A DNA stretch of 64,000 nt from a bacterium. GTDB lineage: Bacteria > Patescibacteriota > Minisyncoccia > Phycocordibacterales > Phycocordibacteraceae. Positions 1,479 through 25,410 of the stretch are shown one piece after another. How positions within the stretch are numbered: the stretch's first letter is position 1; each line of letters opens with the position of its first letter. The notes beneath the pieces are model-generated. The model searched no databases, was not told where the DNA came from, and saw only the letters and a list, made by a program, of their open reading frames with translations. The stretch spans positions 8,535 through 72,534 of the forward strand of contig JAHFMR010000004.1 in the NCBI GenBank assembly GCA_023267755.1, read 5' to 3'. Made by a program: the position numbers and the translations under genes.

Positions 1479-1527
1479 AAAGAGGTCTCACCATCCTAGC
1501 AAATTCCCTGGAAAATGTCGTGCCGTG

Positions 1528-1601
1528 TGCTGACGGGAGGACTTGCACCTCCGACCTTAGGTTTATGAATCCTATGCTCTAACTACCTGAGCTACGCCAG
1601 C
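1528..1601 (-). tRNA. tRNA with CAT anticodon (elongator Met or Ile2-lysidine type); atypical T-loop UGCAAGU and A31:A39 mismatch
   Basis: Reverse complement: GCUGGCG-UA-GCUC-AGGUAGUUA-GAGC-A-UAGGA-UUCAUAA-ACCUA-AGGUC-GGAGG-UGCAAGU-CCUCC-CGUCAGC-A; G1-C72 paired so not initiator. Confidence 0.6.
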
Positions 1602-9618: not shown

Positions 9619-10122
9619 GTGGAAAAGTGGATTAGAAAATTACCCCGCTCGCGCGTGGACTATCCTTCGCAGAAACGCGACCAGCTGAAGTACTGGGTCT
9701 GGAAAGCGTACACTCCGCTTCACCCGCTTGTGCGCAATGCGTCATATCGCCTCGGCGTCGGGAGATTCTTATTGCGACGCGTGTTCCCAGAGATGAAACA
9801 GACCGGCCGACAGGATTTCCTCATCGGGACGCTTGACCCCGCGCATTCGGTACGCGATTTCGTCTCGTTCCTCATCGAACAAGGATTCGGAAATCACTTT
9901 GTCGCGTGGAAGGATTCTGACGAGCTTGTGAGTCTTCGGCGCACTGACGGCTTTCGACATCAATATCATATCCGCATCTTCAAAGACGGAGAGGTGCGCT
10001 GTCACTACGAGTTTACGCCGGAGTATCACCCTATTCGCCACCTTATACGCATCGGCTTTGAAGACCGTAACCAGGAGTTCAGAACGCTTATGCAAGACTG
10101 GCTCCTCCCGCTCACACGATGA
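9619..10122 (+). CDS. Hypothetical protein (start uncertain: GTG 9619 or ATG ~9793); stop overlaps the glycerate kinase start (ATGA)
   Basis: ORF track; translational coupling with the next gene; no recognisable domain. Confidence 0.3.
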   Translation: MEKWIRKLPRSRVDYPSQKRDQLKYWVWKAYTPLHPLVRNASYRLGVGRFLLRRVFPEMKQTGRQDFLIGTLDPAHSVRDFVSFLIEQGFGNHFVAWKDSDELVSLRRTDGFRHQYHIRIFKDGEVRCHYEFTPEYHPIRHLIRIGFEDRNQEFRTLMQDWLLPLTR

Positions 10123-11432
10123 TCCACCGCATACAAAACCTCGAGGAGCTTGCTACTGGTAACGCCAAGCGTCTCGACGCACTCGCTATCGCCGAAGCTG
10201 GCTATGCGGCTATCAACACCGGCGAAGCATTGCGGCGCAAGATGTGGGTGGAGACGGATGGGATTCATATCGGCGGGAAGATATACCCCACCGCCGAGCG
10301 GCAAGTATATTTCGTCGGCATCGGCAAGTGCGCCTTTGACGCCGCAGAAGCTATTGAGGATATCTTCGGCGATCTCCTCATTGCTGGCATTGCCTTCGGT
10401 GTGGGCTCCCAAGAAAAAAGCCAACTCAATAAGATACAACCCTATAGCGGGACACACCCGCTCCCGAGCGAAGCGAATGTGGTGGCAACAAGGCACGTTA
10501 TGGAGTTCCTTTCGGATCGCACGGAAAACGACCTCGTCATTATGCTCATCTCGGGTGGCGGTTCGACACTGCTCTGCTCCCCCTCCGGAGTGATGACCTG
10601 TCTCGATGAGAGCACCCTCTTCAGCGAACTCACCGCACGTGGCGCAACAATTCAAGACATCAACACCGTACGCAAACACACCTCGCTCGCGCGCGGCGGT
10701 GCGCTCGCAGAAGCTGCCTACCCAGCCGAAGTTCTCGCTCTCATCGCTTCTGACGTCCCTGGGAATGACATCCCCTCTATTGCTTCTGGCCCGACCGTTC
10801 TCGATTCCTCGACCATCGCCGACGCGGAAATAATCCTCGCGAAGTACAGTGTCGCCGCCGCAGGCATCACGCTCATTGAGACGCCGAAGGACGCAAGATA
10901 TTTTGAGCGTGTCACAAACACGCTCTTCATCACCAGCCAGGATGCTCTCCTTGCGATGCAGGAAGAGGCGACACGACGCGGTTATCAGGCCACTATCGTG
11001 GCCGACTGCTTCACTGGTGAGGCACGCGAGGTGGGGCGCTCTGTTGTAGAGAAGTTGCATACAGTGAACACTGGCTCTGCTCTGCTCTACGCGGGTGAAA
11101 GCACTGTTATGATTAACGGTGACGGCAAGGGTTCCTCGACTCCGCTCGGGGCAGGCGGGCGCAATCAGGAGATGTCGCTCGCCGCGCTTAGCGACATTCG
11201 CGAGGGAGAGCTTCTTCTCCCCTTTGCCTCCGACGGGCGCGATAACACCGACCACGCGGGCGCGATTGCCGATAGTACGACGCTCGCTCACGCGCACGAA
11301 CAAAACCTCGCCCCCGAAGATTATCTCGCCACCCATCGCTCCTACGACTTCTTTACAACAACGCGCGATGCCCTCTTAACGGGGTATACTGGATCTAATG
11401 TATCTGACCTTATTATCGCCCTTAAGAAATAA
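10119..11432 (+). CDS. Glycerate 2-kinase (MOFRL family; hydroxypyruvate reductase-associated GckA/TtuD type)
   Basis: DLVIMLISGGGSTLLCSP and C-terminal MOFRL-like region; 437 aa. Confidence 0.7.
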   Translation: MIHRIQNLEELATGNAKRLDALAIAEAGYAAINTGEALRRKMWVETDGIHIGGKIYPTAERQVYFVGIGKCAFDAAEAIEDIFGDLLIAGIAFGVGSQEKSQLNKIQPYSGTHPLPSEANVVATRHVMEFLSDRTENDLVIMLISGGGSTLLCSPSGVMTCLDESTLFSELTARGATIQDINTVRKHTSLARGGALAEAAYPAEVLALIASDVPGNDIPSIASGPTVLDSSTIADAEIILAKYSVAAAGITLIETPKDARYFERVTNTLFITSQDALLAMQEEATRRGYQATIVADCFTGEAREVGRSVVEKLHTVNTGSALLYAGESTVMINGDGKGSSTPLGAGGRNQEMSLAALSDIREGELLLPFASDGRDNTDHAGAIADSTTLAHAHEQNLAPEDYLATHRSYDFFTTTRDALLTGYTGSNVSDLIIALKK

Positions 11433-11436
11433 CCCT

Positions 11437-11895
11437 ATGAAAACTCGTTCTCAAGGCTTCACTCTTATCGAACTTCTCGTCGTCATCGCTATCATCGGTG
11501 TGCTCTCGGCGGTCGTCCTCGCTTCGCTCAACACCGCCCGCTCCAAGGGCAACGATGCCGCAATCCAGTCAGATCTGGCCGCAATCCAGACTCAATCAGA
11601 GATTTTCTATGGATCCAATGGCAACAAATATGACTCTTCTGGTGGTACTACATCCACGTGTTCTGGTGCTGGCACGCTGTGGTCCGACACAACGATTATT
11701 AAAGCAGTAACGGCGGCTCAGAAAGCTGCAGGTAATGTAGCGGCAGTCTGCGGTTCGAACGCTTCTGCATATGCTATTCAAGTAAAGTTGAATAGTCTTA
11801 AATCTGGTGCCACTCAATTCTGGTGCGTTGATGCGTCAGGGATGGCATCGACGTCACCGACGCTTATGCTTGGTGGTGCTATCGCTTGTCCGTAA
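11437..11895 (+). CDS. Type IV pilin (prepilin with N-terminal cleavage/methylation domain)
   Basis: MKTRSQG-FTLIELLVVIAIIGVLSAVVLASLNTARSKGNDAA; paralog of 32584..32997 and 33035..33490. Confidence 0.85.
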   Translation: MKTRSQGFTLIELLVVIAIIGVLSAVVLASLNTARSKGNDAAIQSDLAAIQTQSEIFYGSNGNKYDSSGGTTSTCSGAGTLWSDTTIIKAVTAAQKAAGNVAAVCGSNASAYAIQVKLNSLKSGATQFWCVDASGMASTSPTLMLGGAIACP

Positions 11896-11921
11896 GATTG
11901 CTCGGCGCGTAATCCATAACA

Positions 11922-14345
11922 ATGAAAAACGCCCACATACTCTGGATGAAAGACACCAGTATGGACGATGTCGCTCAGGTCGGCGGCAAGAACGCCTCGC
12001 TCGGCGAGCTTATCCGTTCGATGGTTCCCCGGGGAGTGCGCGTGCCTGAGGGGTTCTGTGTCACTGCCGAGGCGTACTATTATTTTCTCAAAGAGACTGG
12101 GCTTGATGTGTTTATCGAGGAAACGCTTCGCGGATTGGACACGCGCAATCTGAAAGAACTCTCTCGCTGCGGCAAGCTCATACGCGATAAGATGCGCGCC
12201 ACGCCGCTCCCCACCCGTCTCGAGCGCTCTATCATCGACGCGTACACGCAGATGGAGAAGCAGTACGGAAAGAAGACTGACGTCGCGGTGCGCTCCTCGG
12301 CGACCGCTGAGGATCTTCCGGGCGCCTCGTTTGCCGGCGAACAGGAGACTTATTTGAATATTCGCGGAGCTAAGGACGTTGTTCGCGCCACGGTCTGGAC
12401 GATGGCCTCCCTCTTCACCGATCGCGCCATCTCCTATCGCGCTGACAGAGGATTCGACCATATGCGAGTCGCGCTCTCGGTGGGGGTACAGAAGATGGTC
12501 CGCTCAGACAAAGGTGCGTCCGGGGTGATGTTCACTGTGGACACCGAGAGTGGCTTCCGCGATATCGTCGTCGTGAACGCCACCTACGGGCTTGGCGAGA
12601 TGATTGTACAGGGCCACGTCACTCCAGACGAGTACCTCGTGAGCAAATCGCGCATCGGCAAGGTAAAGACACCCATCATCTCCAAGAAGATTGGTAAGAA
12701 CACCCGGAAGATGATCTACGATACTGGCAAGGCGGCGGTCGAGCAGACCAAAATAGTTGCGACGCCAGTCGCCGATACCAAACGCTTCGTCCTCACCGAC
12801 GATGAAATAGTCACGATGGCGACCTGGGGAAAAATTGTTGAGGAGCATTACAGCGAGCGAGCTAAGAAGTGGACACCGATGGATATGGAGTGGGCCAAGG
12901 ACGGTATCTCGGGTGAACTCTTTATTGTGCAGGCACGCCCCGAGACAGTACAGGCAGGGCGCGACTTCACCACGCTTGTCGAATATAAAGTGACCGGCCA
13001 AGGCAAGGAGCTCGTACGCGGTATCTCGGTGGGCTCGAAGGTCGCGGTGGGCAAGGTGCACGTGATTATGAACCCGAAACAGATTAGAGAGTTCAAGAAG
13101 GGCGAAGTGCTCGTCACAGCGATGACCGATCCCGACTGGGAGCCGATTATGAAGATGGCGAGTGCTATTGTCACCGACAAGGGCGGTCGCACGAGCCACG
13201 CCGCTATCGTCTCACGCGAGCTCGGCCTCCCCGCTATCGTGGGTACCGAGAATGCGACGAAGGCGCTTAAGACCGGCACACTGATTACGGTCGACACGAC
13301 CGGTAGCGCCGGCGTCGTCACGCTCGGTAAAGCAAAGAAGATTGAGATGCGCGAGCACTCACTCGGTGCCCTGCCCTCCACCAAGACCAAGATTATGGTC
13401 AACATCGCTTCGCCGGATATCGCGTTCGAGAATTCCTTCTTGCCGGTACAGGGCGTGGGGCTCGCGCGCGAGGAATTCATCATCGCAAGCGAGATCGGGG
13501 TGCACCCGCTCGCCATCCTCAATCTTAAGAAGCAGTCGCCGCGTGTGAAGAAGGCTATTCTCGAGCGAAGCGCTGGCTGGGATAATCCGGTGGACTTCTA
13601 CGTCGACAATCTCGCGTACGGCATCGCCAAGATCGGTGCCGCCTTCGCCCCGCGACCAGTCATCGTCCGCTTCTCCGATTTCAAGACCAACGAGTACGCA
13701 ACACTGCTTGGCGGTGAGGCCTACGAACCCAAAGAAGAGAACCCGATGCTCGGCTGGCGCGGCGCCTCTCGCTACTATGACCCGAAGTTTAAAGATGCAT
13801 TCGCGCTCGAGTGTAAAGCGCTCGTGAAGGTCCGCACCGATATGGGACTCACCAACGTGGTCCCGATGATCCCCTTCTGTCGCACACCGCACGAGGGCGA
13901 ACAGGTATTGAAGATTATGGCCGAGCACGGCCTTGTCGCCAAATCACTCTCCAAGGGAAACAATAAAACCACGCCGGTCTACGTGATGTGCGAGATACCG
14001 AGCAACATCCTCTTAGCTGAAGAGTTCCTCGACCTCTTCGACGGAATGTCGATAGGCAGCAACGATCTCACCCAGCTCACACTCGGTCTCGATCGTGACT
14101 CCGGCATCGTGACACATATTAGTAATGAGAACGATGAAGCCGTCCGCGCGCTCGTGAGCCAGATTATCCGCAAGTGTACGGCGCGTGGAAAATATATCGG
14201 CATCTGCGGACAAGGCCCCTCCGACCTGCCCGATTTCGCTGAATTTCTCGTGAAGGAGGGTATCGAGAGTATGTCGCTGAACCCGGACTCGGTCGTGAAG
14301 ACGCTCGAGCACATCGCCCAAATAGAGGAGAGGCTCGATCGCTAA
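11922..14345 (+). CDS. ppsA: Phosphoenolpyruvate synthase (pyruvate, water dikinase)
   Basis: N-terminal WMKDTSMDDVAQVGGKNASLGE and PEP-utilising/mobile His domains; 807 aa. Confidence 0.9.
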   Translation: MKNAHILWMKDTSMDDVAQVGGKNASLGELIRSMVPRGVRVPEGFCVTAEAYYYFLKETGLDVFIEETLRGLDTRNLKELSRCGKLIRDKMRATPLPTRLERSIIDAYTQMEKQYGKKTDVAVRSSATAEDLPGASFAGEQETYLNIRGAKDVVRATVWTMASLFTDRAISYRADRGFDHMRVALSVGVQKMVRSDKGASGVMFTVDTESGFRDIVVVNATYGLGEMIVQGHVTPDEYLVSKSRIGKVKTPIISKKIGKNTRKMIYDTGKAAVEQTKIVATPVADTKRFVLTDDEIVTMATWGKIVEEHYSERAKKWTPMDMEWAKDGISGELFIVQARPETVQAGRDFTTLVEYKVTGQGKELVRGISVGSKVAVGKVHVIMNPKQIREFKKGEVLVTAMTDPDWEPIMKMASAIVTDKGGRTSHAAIVSRELGLPAIVGTENATKALKTGTLITVDTTGSAGVVTLGKAKKIEMREHSLGALPSTKTKIMVNIASPDIAFENSFLPVQGVGLAREEFIIASEIGVHPLAILNLKKQSPRVKKAILERSAGWDNPVDFYVDNLAYGIAKIGAAFAPRPVIVRFSDFKTNEYATLLGGEAYEPKEENPMLGWRGASRYYDPKFKDAFALECKALVKVRTDMGLTNVVPMIPFCRTPHEGEQVLKIMAEHGLVAKSLSKGNNKTTPVYVMCEIPSNILLAEEFLDLFDGMSIGSNDLTQLTLGLDRDSGIVTHISNENDEAVRALVSQIIRKCTARGKYIGICGQGPSDLPDFAEFLVKEGIESMSLNPDSVVKTLEHIAQIEERLDR

Positions 14346-21250: not shown

Positions 21251-22030
21251 CTAGCAGGCGATGTTCTGATCAATAGCAGTCGAGCTCGCCTCGTACTGCA
21301 CAATCCAGATTGGACTTCCTGTGATGAAGCTCTTGCCGGTCACGCACGCATTAATCGCGCCTACCTGGCTCTTGACCCCCACTGGTAGCCAGACCGGGAT
21401 GAGCACATCTTGTCCTGCTATCTTCTGCACGGGGATGAAACCGCTTCCGGCAATCGTCCGCCACATACGCGGCATCGAGTAGATGCCGACGCGGAGCCCC
21501 TTTGTATTCAGATAATCAATCGCGCCTTGAATTGTCGCGGCGTTTACCGCCGTATCCTTCGACCAGCTATTGGCCTCTTCGATATCGAGCCACCAGAGCG
21601 CCGACTGCACCCCCTTCTCTAGCGCGTAGCGGTAGGAGTGTTCTGCCGCCTGATAGCCGTAGTTGTAGCCCTGACACGCGGTGGGCTCTGCGCCCGCCTT
21701 CGTACCACTGCACGCCTTCGGACTGCCCACGTGCCCTTCTACCGTGCTCCCATAGGGCGCATTCAAATTCATATACACGGTCGCGGCGGTGTGCGAGGCA
21801 AACTTCGTCCACGCATAGCCGGCTGAGAGCCGTTTATTATCGACGAACGCCTTCCCTCCGGTGACGCCCACAATCGCGAAGCCAAACGACTCCGCGGGGA
21901 AATAACGCGTGCTGAAGGTTACGTCAAAGCCGAGATTGCTCGGCACATACGGACTCCCCACCGCCGCCACAGCGAGTGCGGGCAATGCCGTAAAAAGAAC
22001 TCCGAGTGCCGCGAAAATCACTTTCCTCAT
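21251..22030 (-). CDS. Secreted glycoside hydrolase family 25-like muramidase
   Basis: Signal peptide; GFDVT, FAIVGVTGGKAFVD, WWLDIEE and PIWIVQYE resemble the GH25 motifs GIDVS/FAIIKATEG/WLDVE/WIAQY. Confidence 0.5.
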   Translation of the reverse strand: MRKVIFAALGVLFTALPALAVAAVGSPYVPSNLGFDVTFSTRYFPAESFGFAIVGVTGGKAFVDNKRLSAGYAWTKFASHTAATVYMNLNAPYGSTVEGHVGSPKACSGTKAGAEPTACQGYNYGYQAAEHSYRYALEKGVQSALWWLDIEEANSWSKDTAVNAATIQGAIDYLNTKGLRVGIYSMPRMWRTIAGSGFIPVQKIAGQDVLIPVWLPVGVKSQVGAINACVTGKSFITGSPIWIVQYEASSTAIDQNIAC

Positions 22031-22045
22031 TACTCAAGTATACCT

Positions 22046-22265
22046 CTCAAGCAAAGCAAAAGCCGCCCTAGTGGGCGGCTTTTGCTTTGCGTGTTGCCCG
22101 AGGCGGTACTGTACCTGTCACTACAGGCAAACCAAAGGTTCTTTCAGCATCGTTCTCCCCTCTTTAGCGATGGGGGCCGGTATGGGTCTGGTTTGAGATG
22201 TTCAAAGAATTTTCAATGGGTTTGGCCAGATGAGAAGACGGAGCGGTACAGTACCAAGAAATCAA
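22046..22265. repeat. Intergenic repeat copy A (begins with perfect GC-rich hairpin 22051..22090; shares 60-nt block with copy B)
   Basis: Shared block ccaaaggttctttc[ag]gcatcgttct.ccctc..tagcgatgggg.ccggtatgg.tc and GGTACTGTACC palindromes. Confidence 0.6.
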
Positions 22266-22367
22266 CATGCCATATTTTTAGTATCAAAATTAAAACAACG
22301 AAACTTAATACCCATATCGCAACGTCCGGCGCCCAACTTGATGCCTTACCTAGTAAGCTTCGTTTAC

Positions 22368-22688
22368 TCAACTCAACTCAACTTCACCCGTTAATTTGCC
22401 CAGGGTATCCTTATTTCTCATTGCGGTTTTCTTGAGATCATCATTATAAAGATAAAGAGGTGTTGGAATTAAGAGTAAAAGTGCACTGACCAAAAAACGA
22501 ACAAGATTATCTAGCGGGATGAGATTTGAATTGAATGTGGCTATAACAAGAAGTGTCGCTGCTAAACCGGCCATCAATGGCAAAAGTGCCATTCTCGAAC
22601 GAACAGTCGACTGAAGCATATCGAGATGCTCCTTGACGACTATCCACTGATGCTCCTTCGGTAGACGGTCAAAATATTTCTTGTCCAT
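22368..22688 (-). CDS. Small 2-TM membrane protein, low-GC (foreign) gene
   Basis: ORF track; AT-rich codon usage distinct from the window; translationally coupled to upstream ORF. Confidence 0.45.
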   Translation of the reverse strand: MDKKYFDRLPKEHQWIVVKEHLDMLQSTVRSRMALLPLMAGLAATLLVIATFNSNLIPLDNLVRFLVSALLLLIPTPLYLYNDDLKKTAMRNKDTLGKLTGEVELS

Positions 22689-22942
22689 TAGACTTCTTTG
22701 TTCACTTCTTCATTCTTTGGGTACCCCCATTTGCCACGAACGATATACCAAAATAGCCCCTCTACTGCGCCCATAGAGAAAACAATGACTACATTTGTTA
22801 TTACAAAAGACCCGAAATCAAACGAATAATAAAGAGCTGTATTTGCAATCAGTAGAAATAAACCAAAAAAGAAAACATATAGAGATTTAACTACTCTATA
22901 CCACCTCTTATCTTCATATTCCGCGATTACCTTGTTTTTCAT
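22688..22942 (-). CDS. Small 2-TM membrane protein, low-GC (foreign) gene
   Basis: ORF track; AT-rich; start/stop overlap with 22368..22688. Confidence 0.45.
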   Translation of the reverse strand: MKNKVIAEYEDKRWYRVVKSLYVFFFGLFLLIANTALYYSFDFGSFVITNVVIVFSMGAVEGLFWYIVRGKWGYPKNEEVNKEV

Positions 22943-23035
22943 TTTGTTATTTATATTCTACCAAGAGTTCCTTTTGTCCACCACACTGCTTCCAACATTG
23001 TTGGATTTGATGCTGGCTAGGGTCTCTAGCGATGC

Positions 23036-23290
23036 GACGCAAAAGCCGCCCTTTCAGGGCGCCTTTTGCTAACGTGATGCCGAGCGGTACTGTACTGCCC
23101 TTGATGGGGGACGGTACTGGTTCCTGGCGTCACAACCGTGTTGCCCGTGTCGGTACTGTACCCGCCACAATAAGCAAACCAAAGGTTCTTTCGGCATCGT
23201 TCTTCCCTCCCTAGCGATGGGGACCGGTATGGATCGGCTTTCAATGTTTTCAAGGATTTTTGATCAATTTCGAGCTCGAGAAACGGGAGC
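23036..23290. repeat. Intergenic repeat copy B (hairpin 23038..23068; composite of the copy A block and the copy C block)
   Basis: Contains gatggggga.ggtactggttcctggcgtcacaaccgtgttgc (as in C) followed by the A-type block. Confidence 0.6.
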
Positions 23291-23350
23291 CGGTATCGTA
23301 CTGAGATTTTATTATGTTAATCTCACAAATATCGTGATCATCCGAAAACT

Positions 23351-24259
23351 ATGACCGACTTCGAGACCCGGCTTACTGCGTACATCCACAAGATTCTCGC
23401 CCACGAAGGCGATGACTGGAGCGTTTCATCGCCACCTCAGGGTATGAGCAGCAGCGTCTTCTTCCTGACATTGGGAGGCATGGAATATGCGGTGAAGTAC
23501 GGTGTGGATGCGGCTAAAGATGTACCCGCCATCGCACTCATCCGTGATCACGGCGCACGCGTCCCGGTGCCCGAGGTCGTGGAAAGTTTTGTGTTCGAAG
23601 AAGTGCCGATAGTGGTGATGAAGCGGATCGTGTTTCCCCTACTCGAGAGCGTACCAGTCGCGGATCTCCCGGCGTATCTTCCGAGCATGCTAGATCTCAT
23701 GGAGGAACTCCACACGATTACCAACCCAACACCAAAGATAGTGTCTGCGCCGGGTGAGCTTGCTTCGTGGAAGGAATATCTGCTCGCGCAATTCGACGGG
23801 CGCACAATAGACTGGGAAGAAATACTCGGGCGCAAAGCCTTGGATCGCGCGCTCGTTGCGGATGCGCTCGACCGATTCCGCGCGCTCCTCGCCGCAAGCG
23901 ATCTCGAGCTTTCGTCTTATACGCTTCTCCATACGGACTTCAACCAGCGCAATCTCTTCGTCGATCTGGCCACAAAGACTATCAGTGGGATTGTTGACTG
24001 GGAGGACGCGGTCTTTGGCGATTCCATCTATGATTTTGCGCGGATACGCATGTTCCTCTGGCATTTCGACCTGCCTGAAATGGCCATCTCCGTGTACTAC
24101 AACCGGACGCGTTATAACGATACGGAGAAGCAGCGCGAATGGTTGTATTTAACGGCGCGAGTCATCCAATACCTTGCCTGGTATTCGGAGGAAGATACGA
24201 CATTCAATACCTCCCGAATCGCGTTGCACCAGAACTATCTGCGGGCGATCCGGTGGTGA
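23351..24259 (+). CDS. Aminoglycoside-phosphotransferase/choline-kinase-like protein kinase fold enzyme (APH family)
   Basis: LLHTDFNQRNLFVD (HxDxxxxN catalytic loop) and GIVDWEDAVFGD (IDWE/DFG-like) motifs. Confidence 0.65.
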   Translation: MTDFETRLTAYIHKILAHEGDDWSVSSPPQGMSSSVFFLTLGGMEYAVKYGVDAAKDVPAIALIRDHGARVPVPEVVESFVFEEVPIVVMKRIVFPLLESVPVADLPAYLPSMLDLMEELHTITNPTPKIVSAPGELASWKEYLLAQFDGRTIDWEEILGRKALDRALVADALDRFRALLAASDLELSSYTLLHTDFNQRNLFVDLATKTISGIVDWEDAVFGDSIYDFARIRMFLWHFDLPEMAISVYYNRTRYNDTEKQREWLYLTARVIQYLAWYSEEDTTFNTSRIALHQNYLRAIRW

Positions 24260-24290
24260 TAATCTGTGGCCGCCTCGGATCGAGGTGGTA

Positions 24291-24448
24291 GCAAAAGCCG
24301 CCCATAAGGGCGGCTTTTGCGTACGTGATGCACTACAAGAGTACTTCTCGTTTTCTAACTCGCTTCGCTCCTAAGAAAACAATGTCGCCGGGCGGTACTG
24401 TGCTGACCCTGATGGGGGAAGGTACTGGTTCCTGGCGTCACAACCGTG
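24291..24448. repeat. Repeat copy C (terminator hairpin 24291..24320 plus the 60-nt block shared with B), immediately 3' of the intron-containing tRNA
   Basis: gcaaaagccgccc-ataa-gggcggcttttgc; block ctgatgggggaaggtactggttcctggcgtcacaaccgtgttgc. Confidence 0.6.
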
Positions 24449-24769
24449 TTGCGGGGGCCGGAATCGAACCGGCGTCTGGAGGTTCTTCTGTACCTACTGT
24501 TTCCAGCAGGAATGGACTATCCCATAATCCTATAAGGATTCTCCCATTATAGTCTCTGAACCTTTCCTCCGCCTCAGGCGGAAGACTTGGCTGCTGATTG
24601 CCGAATCTTCTCGTTTTTCACGCATTCGCGCCCACCCTTTCGAGTCACGTTGTAGCATGAGAAGCTCTCACGGTATTCCAGCAATTTAGAGAGTTTTTCC
24701 ACTACCCGTTACCGGATAGGGTCACGTTATTCACATGAGCCTCCCGAGGTACCTCTCCTCTACCCCGCT
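24449..24769 (-). tRNA. Initiator-like tRNA-Met (anticodon CAT) interrupted by a group I intron; exons 24769..24735 and 24484..24449
   Basis: Spliced: AGCGGGG-UA-GAGG-AGAGGUA-CCUC-G-GGAGG-CUCAU|AA-CCUCC-AGAC-GCCGG-UUCGAUU-CCGGC-CCCCGCA-A; 3' half identical to E. coli tRNA-fMet (CCGGCCCCCGCAA), 1:72 mismatch. Confidence 0.75.
24485..24734 (-). ncRNA. Group I self-splicing intron (~250 nt, no ORF) in the tRNA anticodon loop after U36
   Basis: Exon ends in U, intron ends in G; IGS GUGA pairs with UCAU; core-like CUAAAUUGCUGG...CGAAAGGGUGGG (J3/4-P4) and CAGAGACUAUAAUGGGAG (J6/7-P7) motifs. Confidence 0.65.
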
Positions 24770-24837
24770 GTATCAAAGTATACACAGAAAAAAAACTCGG
24801 GCAACCGTATTTCAGAAATGAAGATGTTTCGTCTTTA

Positions 24838-25410
24838 TCAAATCACCTTGAACTCTCTGAAGACCGCTTCGTAGCGCGCGATGGTGCGCTGCGCGAGCGT
24901 CTCGGAGAGGTCGAAGGCGGAGCCGTCGTGCGCGATCCGGTTGCGCACTTTGTGTGCCTCCCACGCGTCGTTCAGACTGCCGAATGTGGCGTTATCAGCG
25001 GTCTTCAACTTCTCGGCGACACCCTCGCCCACATACCCCTGCTGCACGAGCACATCGTCGAGCATAATATCCGCCTCGATAATAGCGTCGCGCCACTCGC
25101 TCGAGGTCGTCCCCGCCGCGAGCGTCTTGATGTGTTGCCAGCGTGGGTGCTCATCGTCGAGGGAAGCGGCGACTGTAAGCGGTGTGGAGTAGAACTCTTC
25201 TTCGCGGTGTCGGAGCTCGAAGAGGCGCACTGTGCAATACACAATAATGAAGAGTGCTACCACCGAAACCGTGTAGCCAATACCGACAATCCAGAGCCAG
25301 AGGTGCGAGAGAAAGGCTTCAATCCCACTTAGCGAGCCATAGCACGCACCGTGCAAGCAGTCGTAGAGGAGACGGAAGAAGTATTCGGTATTCGTCTGCG
25401 TAGAAGACAT
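24838..25410 (-). CDS. Membrane-anchored HEPN-domain (DUF4145-like) protein
   Basis: N-terminal TM helices; C-terminal AHKVRNRIAHDG contains an Rx4H HEPN motif. Confidence 0.45.
   Translation of the reverse strand: MSSTQTNTEYFFRLLYDCLHGACYGSLSGIEAFLSHLWLWIVGIGYTVSVVALFIIVYCTVRLFELRHREEEFYSTPLTVAASLDDEHPRWQHIKTLAAGTTSSEWRDAIIEADIMLDDVLVQQGYVGEGVAEKLKTADNATFGSLNDAWEAHKVRNRIAHDGSAFDLSETLAQRTIARYEAVFREFKVI

Follow-up and report, generated by a model that had tools for sequence, protein, structure and literature searches.

An fMet.5Ug group I intron directly after the anticodon of an initiator-type tRNA gene from uncultured Patescibacteria

The initiator tRNA gene of an uncultured member of the Patescibacteria (Parcubacteria-like) is, with high confidence, interrupted after tRNA position 36 by a group I ribozyme of the fMet.5Ug type that is 250 nt long and contains no ORF. 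Four elements of this reading are demonstrated here: the family to which the intron belongs, its exact junctions, the initiator type of its exons and selection acting on its RNA fold. The gene lies on the minus strand of the window, by which we mean the whole 64,000-nt stretch of DNA that was analyzed, and has the following parts.

24804..24777, minus strand: promoter-like TTGCCC-16 nt-TATACT, a match to consensus only, ending 7 nt upstream of tRNA position 1
24769..24735, minus strand: tRNA-fMet exon 1, 35 nt, tRNA positions 1-36, sequence AGCGGGGUAGAGGAGAGGUACCUCGGGAGGCUCAU, with the 3' end ...GGAGGCUCAU, whose last bases are the anticodon CAU
24734..24485, minus strand: group I intron, 250 nt, without an ORF, starting GUGAAUAACGUG and ending CAGAAG; its first base is G (24734) and its last base omega-G (24485)
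24484..24449, minus strand: tRNA-fMet exon 2, 36 nt, tRNA positions 37-73, sequence AACCUCCAGACGCCGGUUCGAUUCCGGCCCCCGCAA

Exon 2 supplies the discriminator A, and CCA is not encoded. When the exons are joined, the resulting 71-mer folds into a cloverleaf (MFE -33.5) that ARAGORN calls as tRNA-Met(cat). Run in its intron mode on the unspliced gene, ARAGORN -i returned c[24448,24769] (cat) i(36,250), whereas ARAGORN without intron mode and the Rfam tRNA model both missed the split gene in the 64-kb window. Rfam model RF00028 (Intron_gpI) matched 24746..24493 on the minus strand over its full length (model positions 1-253) with 83.9 bits and an E value of 7e-20, against a gathering threshold of 50 bits; this score is far beyond chance, and the match is the sole group I match in the window. 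An earlier note, written from the sequence alone, had described a minus-strand tRNA that folds once an insert of about 250 nt directly after the third anticodon base is removed, had called the insert a group I intron, and had proposed the Intron_gpI search, an intron-tolerant tRNA search and a cloverleaf test of the exons; all three checks came out as it had anticipated.

The positions of the junctions are given independently by related genomes. Upstream of the tRNA, and all on the minus strand, lie ligA, gatC, gatA and an ORF of 190 amino acids (orf190). In a search of GTDB with one genome per species, the closest GatA proteins came from Patescibacteria/Parcubacteria metagenome-assembled genomes (L001, 75%; L002, 72%; L008, 70%), and the order ligA-gatC-gatA-orf190-tRNA is common to L001, L002, L008 and L013. 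At the syntenic site, the tRNA gene of L002 and that of L008 are uninterrupted, and both agree with the predicted spliced product at 71 of 71 positions. Because these intronless alleles match the predicted ligated exons, they fix the junctions as CUCAU|G...G|AACC, in agreement with the earlier proposal that the 5' exon ends in U and the insert in G. Short of RNA data, such alleles are the strongest available evidence for where the predicted exons meet.

Other relatives carry introns in the same gene. In L013 the tRNA is interrupted at the same site by a homologous intron, again with U(-1) and omega-G. By contrast, in L001, L005 and L011 the intron in this tRNA is of another, Azoarcus-like kind (CCAAAUUCGGUGAAACC...GUGUAGAGACUAGACGG) and sits at 33/34; in L001 (7381-7671) this is a 220-nt IC3-type intron with the junctions GGCU|UGAAC...GGUAAG|CAUAACC. 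The intron lineages at the two positions are unrelated, and therefore two sites have been used in one tRNA. Close relatives thus show three states of the gene: intronless, interrupted by an IC3-type intron at 33/34, and interrupted by a phage-like intron at 36/37.

Several features of the neighborhood were observed alongside. The orf190 gene (24838-25410, minus strand) keeps its position between gatA and the tRNA in L001, L002, L008 and L013 at 40-57% identity, and no Pfam family was found for its product. The block TGTGTATACTTT at the promoter-like site is also kept in L001. Directly 3' of the tRNA, window positions 22000-24400 have a G+C content of 47.7% versus about 55% and hold an APH-family phosphotransferase gene (23351..24259, plus strand) together with small ORFs; downstream of the tRNA, L001, L002, L008 and L013 all lack counterparts of these genes, and the segment could be an island inserted beside the tRNA gene. 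The immediate 3' flank (CACGGUUGUGnCGCCAGGAACCAGUACC...CAGUACCG; 24365-24448, minus strand) is kept in L001 (7686-7775) and L008 (6683-6770), although the surrounding intergenic DNA differs among the three genomes. Its consensus fold across these three is weak (-2.3 kcal/mol), with no covariation.

We scanned metagenomes with the junction-specific pattern AGGCTCAT N7-10 GTGAC N20-50 AATTGCNGG, which matched at least 120 stretches. Complete arrangements of exon 1, intron and exon 2 with U(-1) and omega-G numbered at least 53 (53 of the 80 loci examined), with intron lengths of 196-350 nt and one of 666 nt. The other 27 of the 80 comprised 17 chance matches in coding DNA, eight loci cut by contig ends, and two real tRNA loci, L124 and L165, that the extraction script had missed. 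Many of the metagenome loci came from 0.1-um groundwater fractions. From these data we built an alignment of 46 distinct sequences (A2) and counted covariation on an explicit structure that comprised the anticodon stem, P1-P5, a four-helix P5 extension, P6/P6a, the P7 pseudoknot, P8, P9.0 and P9. In window coordinates this structure reads as follows.

24738..24722, minus strand: P1, in which exon UCAU plus intron GU (24738..24733) pairs with ACGUGA (24727..24722), with a wobble at the 5' splice site between U(-1) at 24735 and G at 24725
24721..24699, minus strand: P2 hairpin with a GUAA tetraloop; 7 of 9 pairs compensatory, 98.1% paired
24693..24689, minus strand: P3, CUCUC pairing with GGGAG at 24545..24541; 3 of 5 pairs compensatory, 100% paired
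24683..24678 with 24597..24592, minus strand: P4, invariant
24673..24671 with 24603..24601, minus strand: P5, covarying
24664..24607, minus strand: P5 extension of about 55 nt, with GAAAAAC as its A-rich bulge and a GAAA loop at its end
24591..24559, minus strand: P6 and P6a; 8 pairs with compensatory changes
24556..24549, minus strand: P7 5' strand, GAGACUAU, with a bulged A
24540..24526, minus strand: P8 hairpin; 5 of 6 pairs compensatory
24520..24514, minus strand: P7 3' strand, AUAGUCC, reached via J8/7
24512..24486, minus strand: P9.0 (2 bp), P9 hairpin with a GAAA tetraloop, and 3' tail to omega-G

Folded as a single sequence, the intron reached -78.7 kcal/mol (z -2.93 versus shuffles), and this fold independently recovered P2, P4, P5, P6 and P9. 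P7 forms a pseudoknot with P3 and would provide the guanosine-binding site. No P10 pairing was found between the 3' exon (AACC) and L1. Two details of the earlier note needed correction at this point. The pairing that it had proposed between a guide GUGA and the exon UCAU stands, but the guide is the second GUGA of the intron (+10..+13, 24725..24722) and not the one at +1..+4. Its recognition of a group I core likewise stands, but GAAAGGGUGGG, which it had assigned to P4, instead belongs to the distal hairpin of the P5 extension, of which it forms the GAAA loop, the 3' strand and the bulge.

The covariation within the family is extensive. Across the 46 sequences, 94.8% of cells form standard pairs, compared with 38-43% when partners are slid by one to three columns, and in 51 of the 85 pairs both partners have changed in a compensatory way. 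The structure attains a covariation score of 0.493, versus 0.08-0.10 for controls, and none of 500 shuffles reached any of the observed measures. P2, P3, P5, P5a, P5d, P6a, P8 and P9 are rich in compensatory changes (6 of 7 pairs in P9), the P9.0 pair 385:413 changes from U-A to G-C in 13 sequences, and P5b is weak, at 66% paired. The anticodon stem is 100% paired with two covarying pairs, and the two distal pairs of P1 also covary. The four proximal P1 pairs and the 5' strand of P4 were imposed by the search pattern, and omega-G by the extraction script, so that the invariance of these elements in the metagenome set arises partly by construction. P7 is absent from the search pattern; six of its seven pairs never vary among the 46 sequences, and the seventh departs in a single one. 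As judged from the alignment, pervasive compensatory substitution shows that selection has acted on the RNA fold. Since the P5 extension is absent from one subclade (L098, L103, L114, L127, L148 and L152), we regard it as a facultative peripheral domain.

The single 666-nt intron, L132 (Ga0066639_10289338), belongs to the short-P5 subclade, and its P6 loop is enlarged by an insertion of about 440 nt. This insertion holds a stop-free frame of 125 codons on the strand opposite the tRNA. The 125-residue product had no Pfam match at E <= 0.1; the frame is possibly a degenerate or novel homing endonuclease gene.

Taken together, the structure suggests a conventional course of splicing. The pre-tRNA would be transcribed from the promoter-like site of the gene itself, and the intron would fold into P1-P9, with exon UCAU paired to the guide GUGA and the U24735.G24725 wobble marking the 5' splice site. 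Exogenous guanosine, held in P7 at the G-C pair beside the bulged A, would attack this site; omega-G (24485), placed by P9.0, would then replace it in the same pocket, and the freed 3'-OH of U36 would attack the 3' splice site to yield the ligated 71-nt tRNA, to which CCA would have to be added. Because no P10 pairing is evident, it is most likely the anticodon stem, GGAGG/CCUCC, that keeps the exons joined and aligns them, as reported for the Anabaena pre-tRNA intron (Zaug et al. 1993). We infer that the window intron is spliced.

A genuine group I intron may nevertheless require help in vivo from a protein cofactor of the host or of a phage. Dependence on protein chaperones or maturases is common among group I introns, and the fact that one subclade dispenses with the P5 extension implies that peripheral stabilization varies within the family. 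Yet the window intron is compact and structurally complete, carries no ORF, and has GNRA loops at L2, L5 and L9, which typically make self-stabilizing tertiary contacts. We therefore consider a cofactor requirement rather unlikely.

A second alternative is that the intron has become a relic in decay, unable to splice, so that the split gene would be a pseudogene and an intact initiator gene would lie elsewhere in the genome. The intron has no homing endonuclease gene and hence no upkeep by mobility, and our view of this genome covers 64 kb. Decay is nonetheless hard to reconcile with exons that are 100% identical to the intact, apparently functional genes that relatives carry at the syntenic position, with core helices that are all intact and a P7 that is invariant, bulged A included, apart from one cell, and with family-wide compensatory substitution that implies selection on the fold. 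This makes the relic interpretation very unlikely.

The location of the intron called for a test of tRNA identity, because the classical fMet intron is inserted at 33/34 and the position 36/37 after CAU is the Ile2 (Azoarcus) site. Over its full length the spliced tRNA is 75.7% identical to E. coli initiator metZ, versus 53.9% to elongator metT and 57.5% to ileY, and its last 14 nt are identical to metZ, which upholds the likeness of the mature 3' half to E. coli tRNA-fMet that had been noticed from the sequence alone. In a BLAST search against 5,426 complete E. coli genomes, the median number of matching places in a genome was four. The four initiator genes matched best, the top one lying in a three-gene cluster adjoining amiC; in MG1655 this cluster consists of metZ/metW/metV, with the annotation 'tRNA-initiator Met(CAU)'. 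The tRNA of the relative L005 is 87.8% identical to metZ.

Structural hallmarks point the same way, with one exception. The 1:72 position is A1xA72, so it lacks a Watson-Crick pair, with AxA rather than CxA; the A:A mismatch reported by the earlier note is thus present in the sequence. The D stem GAGG/CCUC gives A11:U24. The relevant anticodon-stem pairs are A29:U41, G30:C40 and G31:C39, which leaves two of the three hallmark G:C pairs. The same two-of-three state occurs in the tRNAs of L003, L004, L005, L010 and L014, Patescibacteria loci that were found through GatA and independently of the tRNA pattern, and A29:U41 therefore looks like a lineage trait. Initiators with the AU/GC/GC arrangement also occur in mycoplasmas. 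These comparisons support assignment of the gene as an initiator-type tRNA, as the earlier note had named it, with A29:U41 as a caveat.

Identity as tRNA-Ile2(CAU) or elongator tRNA-Met, which would make the intron an Azoarcus-like Ile2.5Ug case and is suggested by the anticodon, the 36/37 site and the partly kept three-G:C rule at 29:41, is scarcely credible given the much lower identities to ileY and metT, the metZ-identical 3' end, the placement by BLAST at the metZWV cluster, A1xA72 together with A11:U24, the metZ-like tRNA of L005, the presence in the window of a separate CAU tRNA with a paired G1-C72, and the fMet label that Williams gives to a seed of the same family. The similarity tests against E. 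coli thus reject the Ile2 candidate that the 36/37 site had raised, and the gene is treated below as an initiator-type tRNA gene.

Two further observations concern CAU tRNAs. Within the intron family, position 1 varies (A, C or U) and A72 is kept; in L100, L102, L121 and L139, U1 would form a Watson-Crick pair with A72, a state atypical for a bacterial initiator. The second tRNA(CAU) of the window (1527..1601, minus strand) lies in a Thr-Thr-Asp-Met cluster and, with its paired G1-C72, is not initiator-like. Its sequence suggests that the anticodon stem has an A31/A39 mismatch at its base. With 63-67% identity to each of the three CAU tRNAs of E. coli, it may be either elongator Met or Ile2.

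Comparison with catalogued introns places the window intron in a known type. Williams 2020 (bioRxiv 10.1101/2020.01.27.920355) expands the four classical bacterial tRNA intron types (Leu.3Ug, Arg.5Ug, fMet.2Ug and Ile2.5Ug) to 21, and its seed alignment includes Yba21.fMet.5Ug. This seed is 100% identical to the intron of L127, which in alignment A2 lines up with the window intron over the whole core, and the fMet.5Ug type has therefore already been described. Like the window intron, fMet.5Ug introns interrupt an initiator-type CAU gene after position 36 with U(-1)/omega-G, and they have homologous P1, P2, P3, P4, P6, P7, P8 and P9 sequences. Unlike the window intron, with its P5 extension of about 55 nt, the subclade of seed Yba21 lacks this domain, and identity between the two is 56% globally and 63% over aligned positions. 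On sequence comparison, then, the window intron belongs to the catalogued fMet.5Ug type but has diverged from its seed.

The better-known tRNA introns are more distant. The classical cyanobacterial tRNA-fMet intron (fMet.2Ug), which reportedly belongs to subgroup IC3, resembles the window intron as a group I intron in the anticodon loop of an initiator tRNA, and introns of this kind are present in L001, L005 and L011. It differs in its insertion site (33/34 rather than 36/37) and in its core, which has the IC3-type elements AAAUUCGGNGAA and GUGUAGAGACUAGA where the window intron has AAAUUGCUGGAA and GUUCAGAGACUAUA. The Azoarcus Ile2.5Ug intron shares the CAU anticodon, the 36/37 site, a guide GUG paired with CAU and the U.G wobble, but its host is Ile2 and its IC3 core lacks a P5 extension. 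Identity of the window intron to the Azoarcus and Tpc1 seeds is 51%, measured globally for Azoarcus. In nhmmer searches with a profile of the family, the IC3-type introns of L001, L005 and L011 scored 16-23 bits, compared with 56-83 bits for introns of phages and viral contigs. These low profile scores, the 51% seed identity and the presence of a P5 extension argue against membership in IC3. Subgroup IA is said to have extra helices P7.1/P7.2 between P7 and P3'; in the window intron this interval (J7/3) consists of UAAU only, without P7.1/P7.2, which argues against IA as well.

Group I introns in phage protein-coding genes are much closer. BLAST found 119 phage records that match the P3-P6 domain at 72-78% identity; in these introns, as in the window, this domain comprises P3, P4, the P5 extension and P6 and carries the motif ACAACGUGAnnCGAnAGGnUGGGCG. 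The phage introns differ in sitting in ORFs rather than tRNAs and in their 5' guide and P1. Their carriers include the T5-like Vibrio phage JSF10 (KY883654) and phages of Staphylococcus, Lactococcus, Listeria, Aeromonas and Bacillus. The annotation of JSF10 splits the DNA polymerase I gene in two; between the parts lie the intron and an 873-nt ORF labeled only 'hypothetical protein', which is possibly a homing endonuclease gene. No split tRNA was found in viral contigs with the P5-extension motif. One of them, a 14-kb contig (L083; IMG/VR UViG_3300044470_000004), has three related introns within about 2.2 kb (9950-12150), all with the same P4-P5 extension domain (nhmmer 56-72 bits) and no split tRNA, an arrangement that points to several introns in a single phage gene or in neighboring genes. 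The P5 extension of about 55 nt, and an affinity to phage-gene introns that is much closer than that to the IC3 introns at 33/34, may go beyond the account of Williams 2020.

Group I introns have been described in this phylum before. Nakagawa et al. 2026 (PMC13011429) report them in about 40% of Patescibacteria genomes, with the tRNA introns being non-IC and IA the class reported; their table of 95 complete genomes has introns in CAU tRNAs only at 33/34. The two Patescibacteria introns assayed there, one in tRNA-Asn and one in tRNA-Asp, self-spliced in vitro. They share with the window intron the phylum and the property of being missed by standard tRNA finders, and they differ in interrupting other tRNAs at another site, 35/36.

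What the evidence shows is the phage relationship and the identity of the exons between alleles with and without the intron. A broader idea, in its regulatory part purely speculative, we regard as a long shot: that the branch with the extended P5 arose by recent transfer from phage genes, those for DNA polymerase, tape measure protein and RNA polymerase being the donors in this reading, into a probably single-copy initiator tRNA of the Candidate Phyla Radiation (CPR), where guanosine-dependent splicing might gate all translation initiation. If true, such gating would couple protein synthesis to the supply of nucleotides through RNA alone, in organisms that have few protein regulators. The finding opens no new category, as the feature belongs to the fMet.5Ug type already described. 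Because standard tRNA finders miss the split gene, annotation of such a genome would appear to lack an initiator tRNA, for which intron-aware tools (tFind, ARAGORN -i) are the remedy. The gene adds a well-documented case of Patescibacteria keeping group I introns in essential tRNA genes, and its three allelic states are useful material for studies of intron gain, loss and host-switching.
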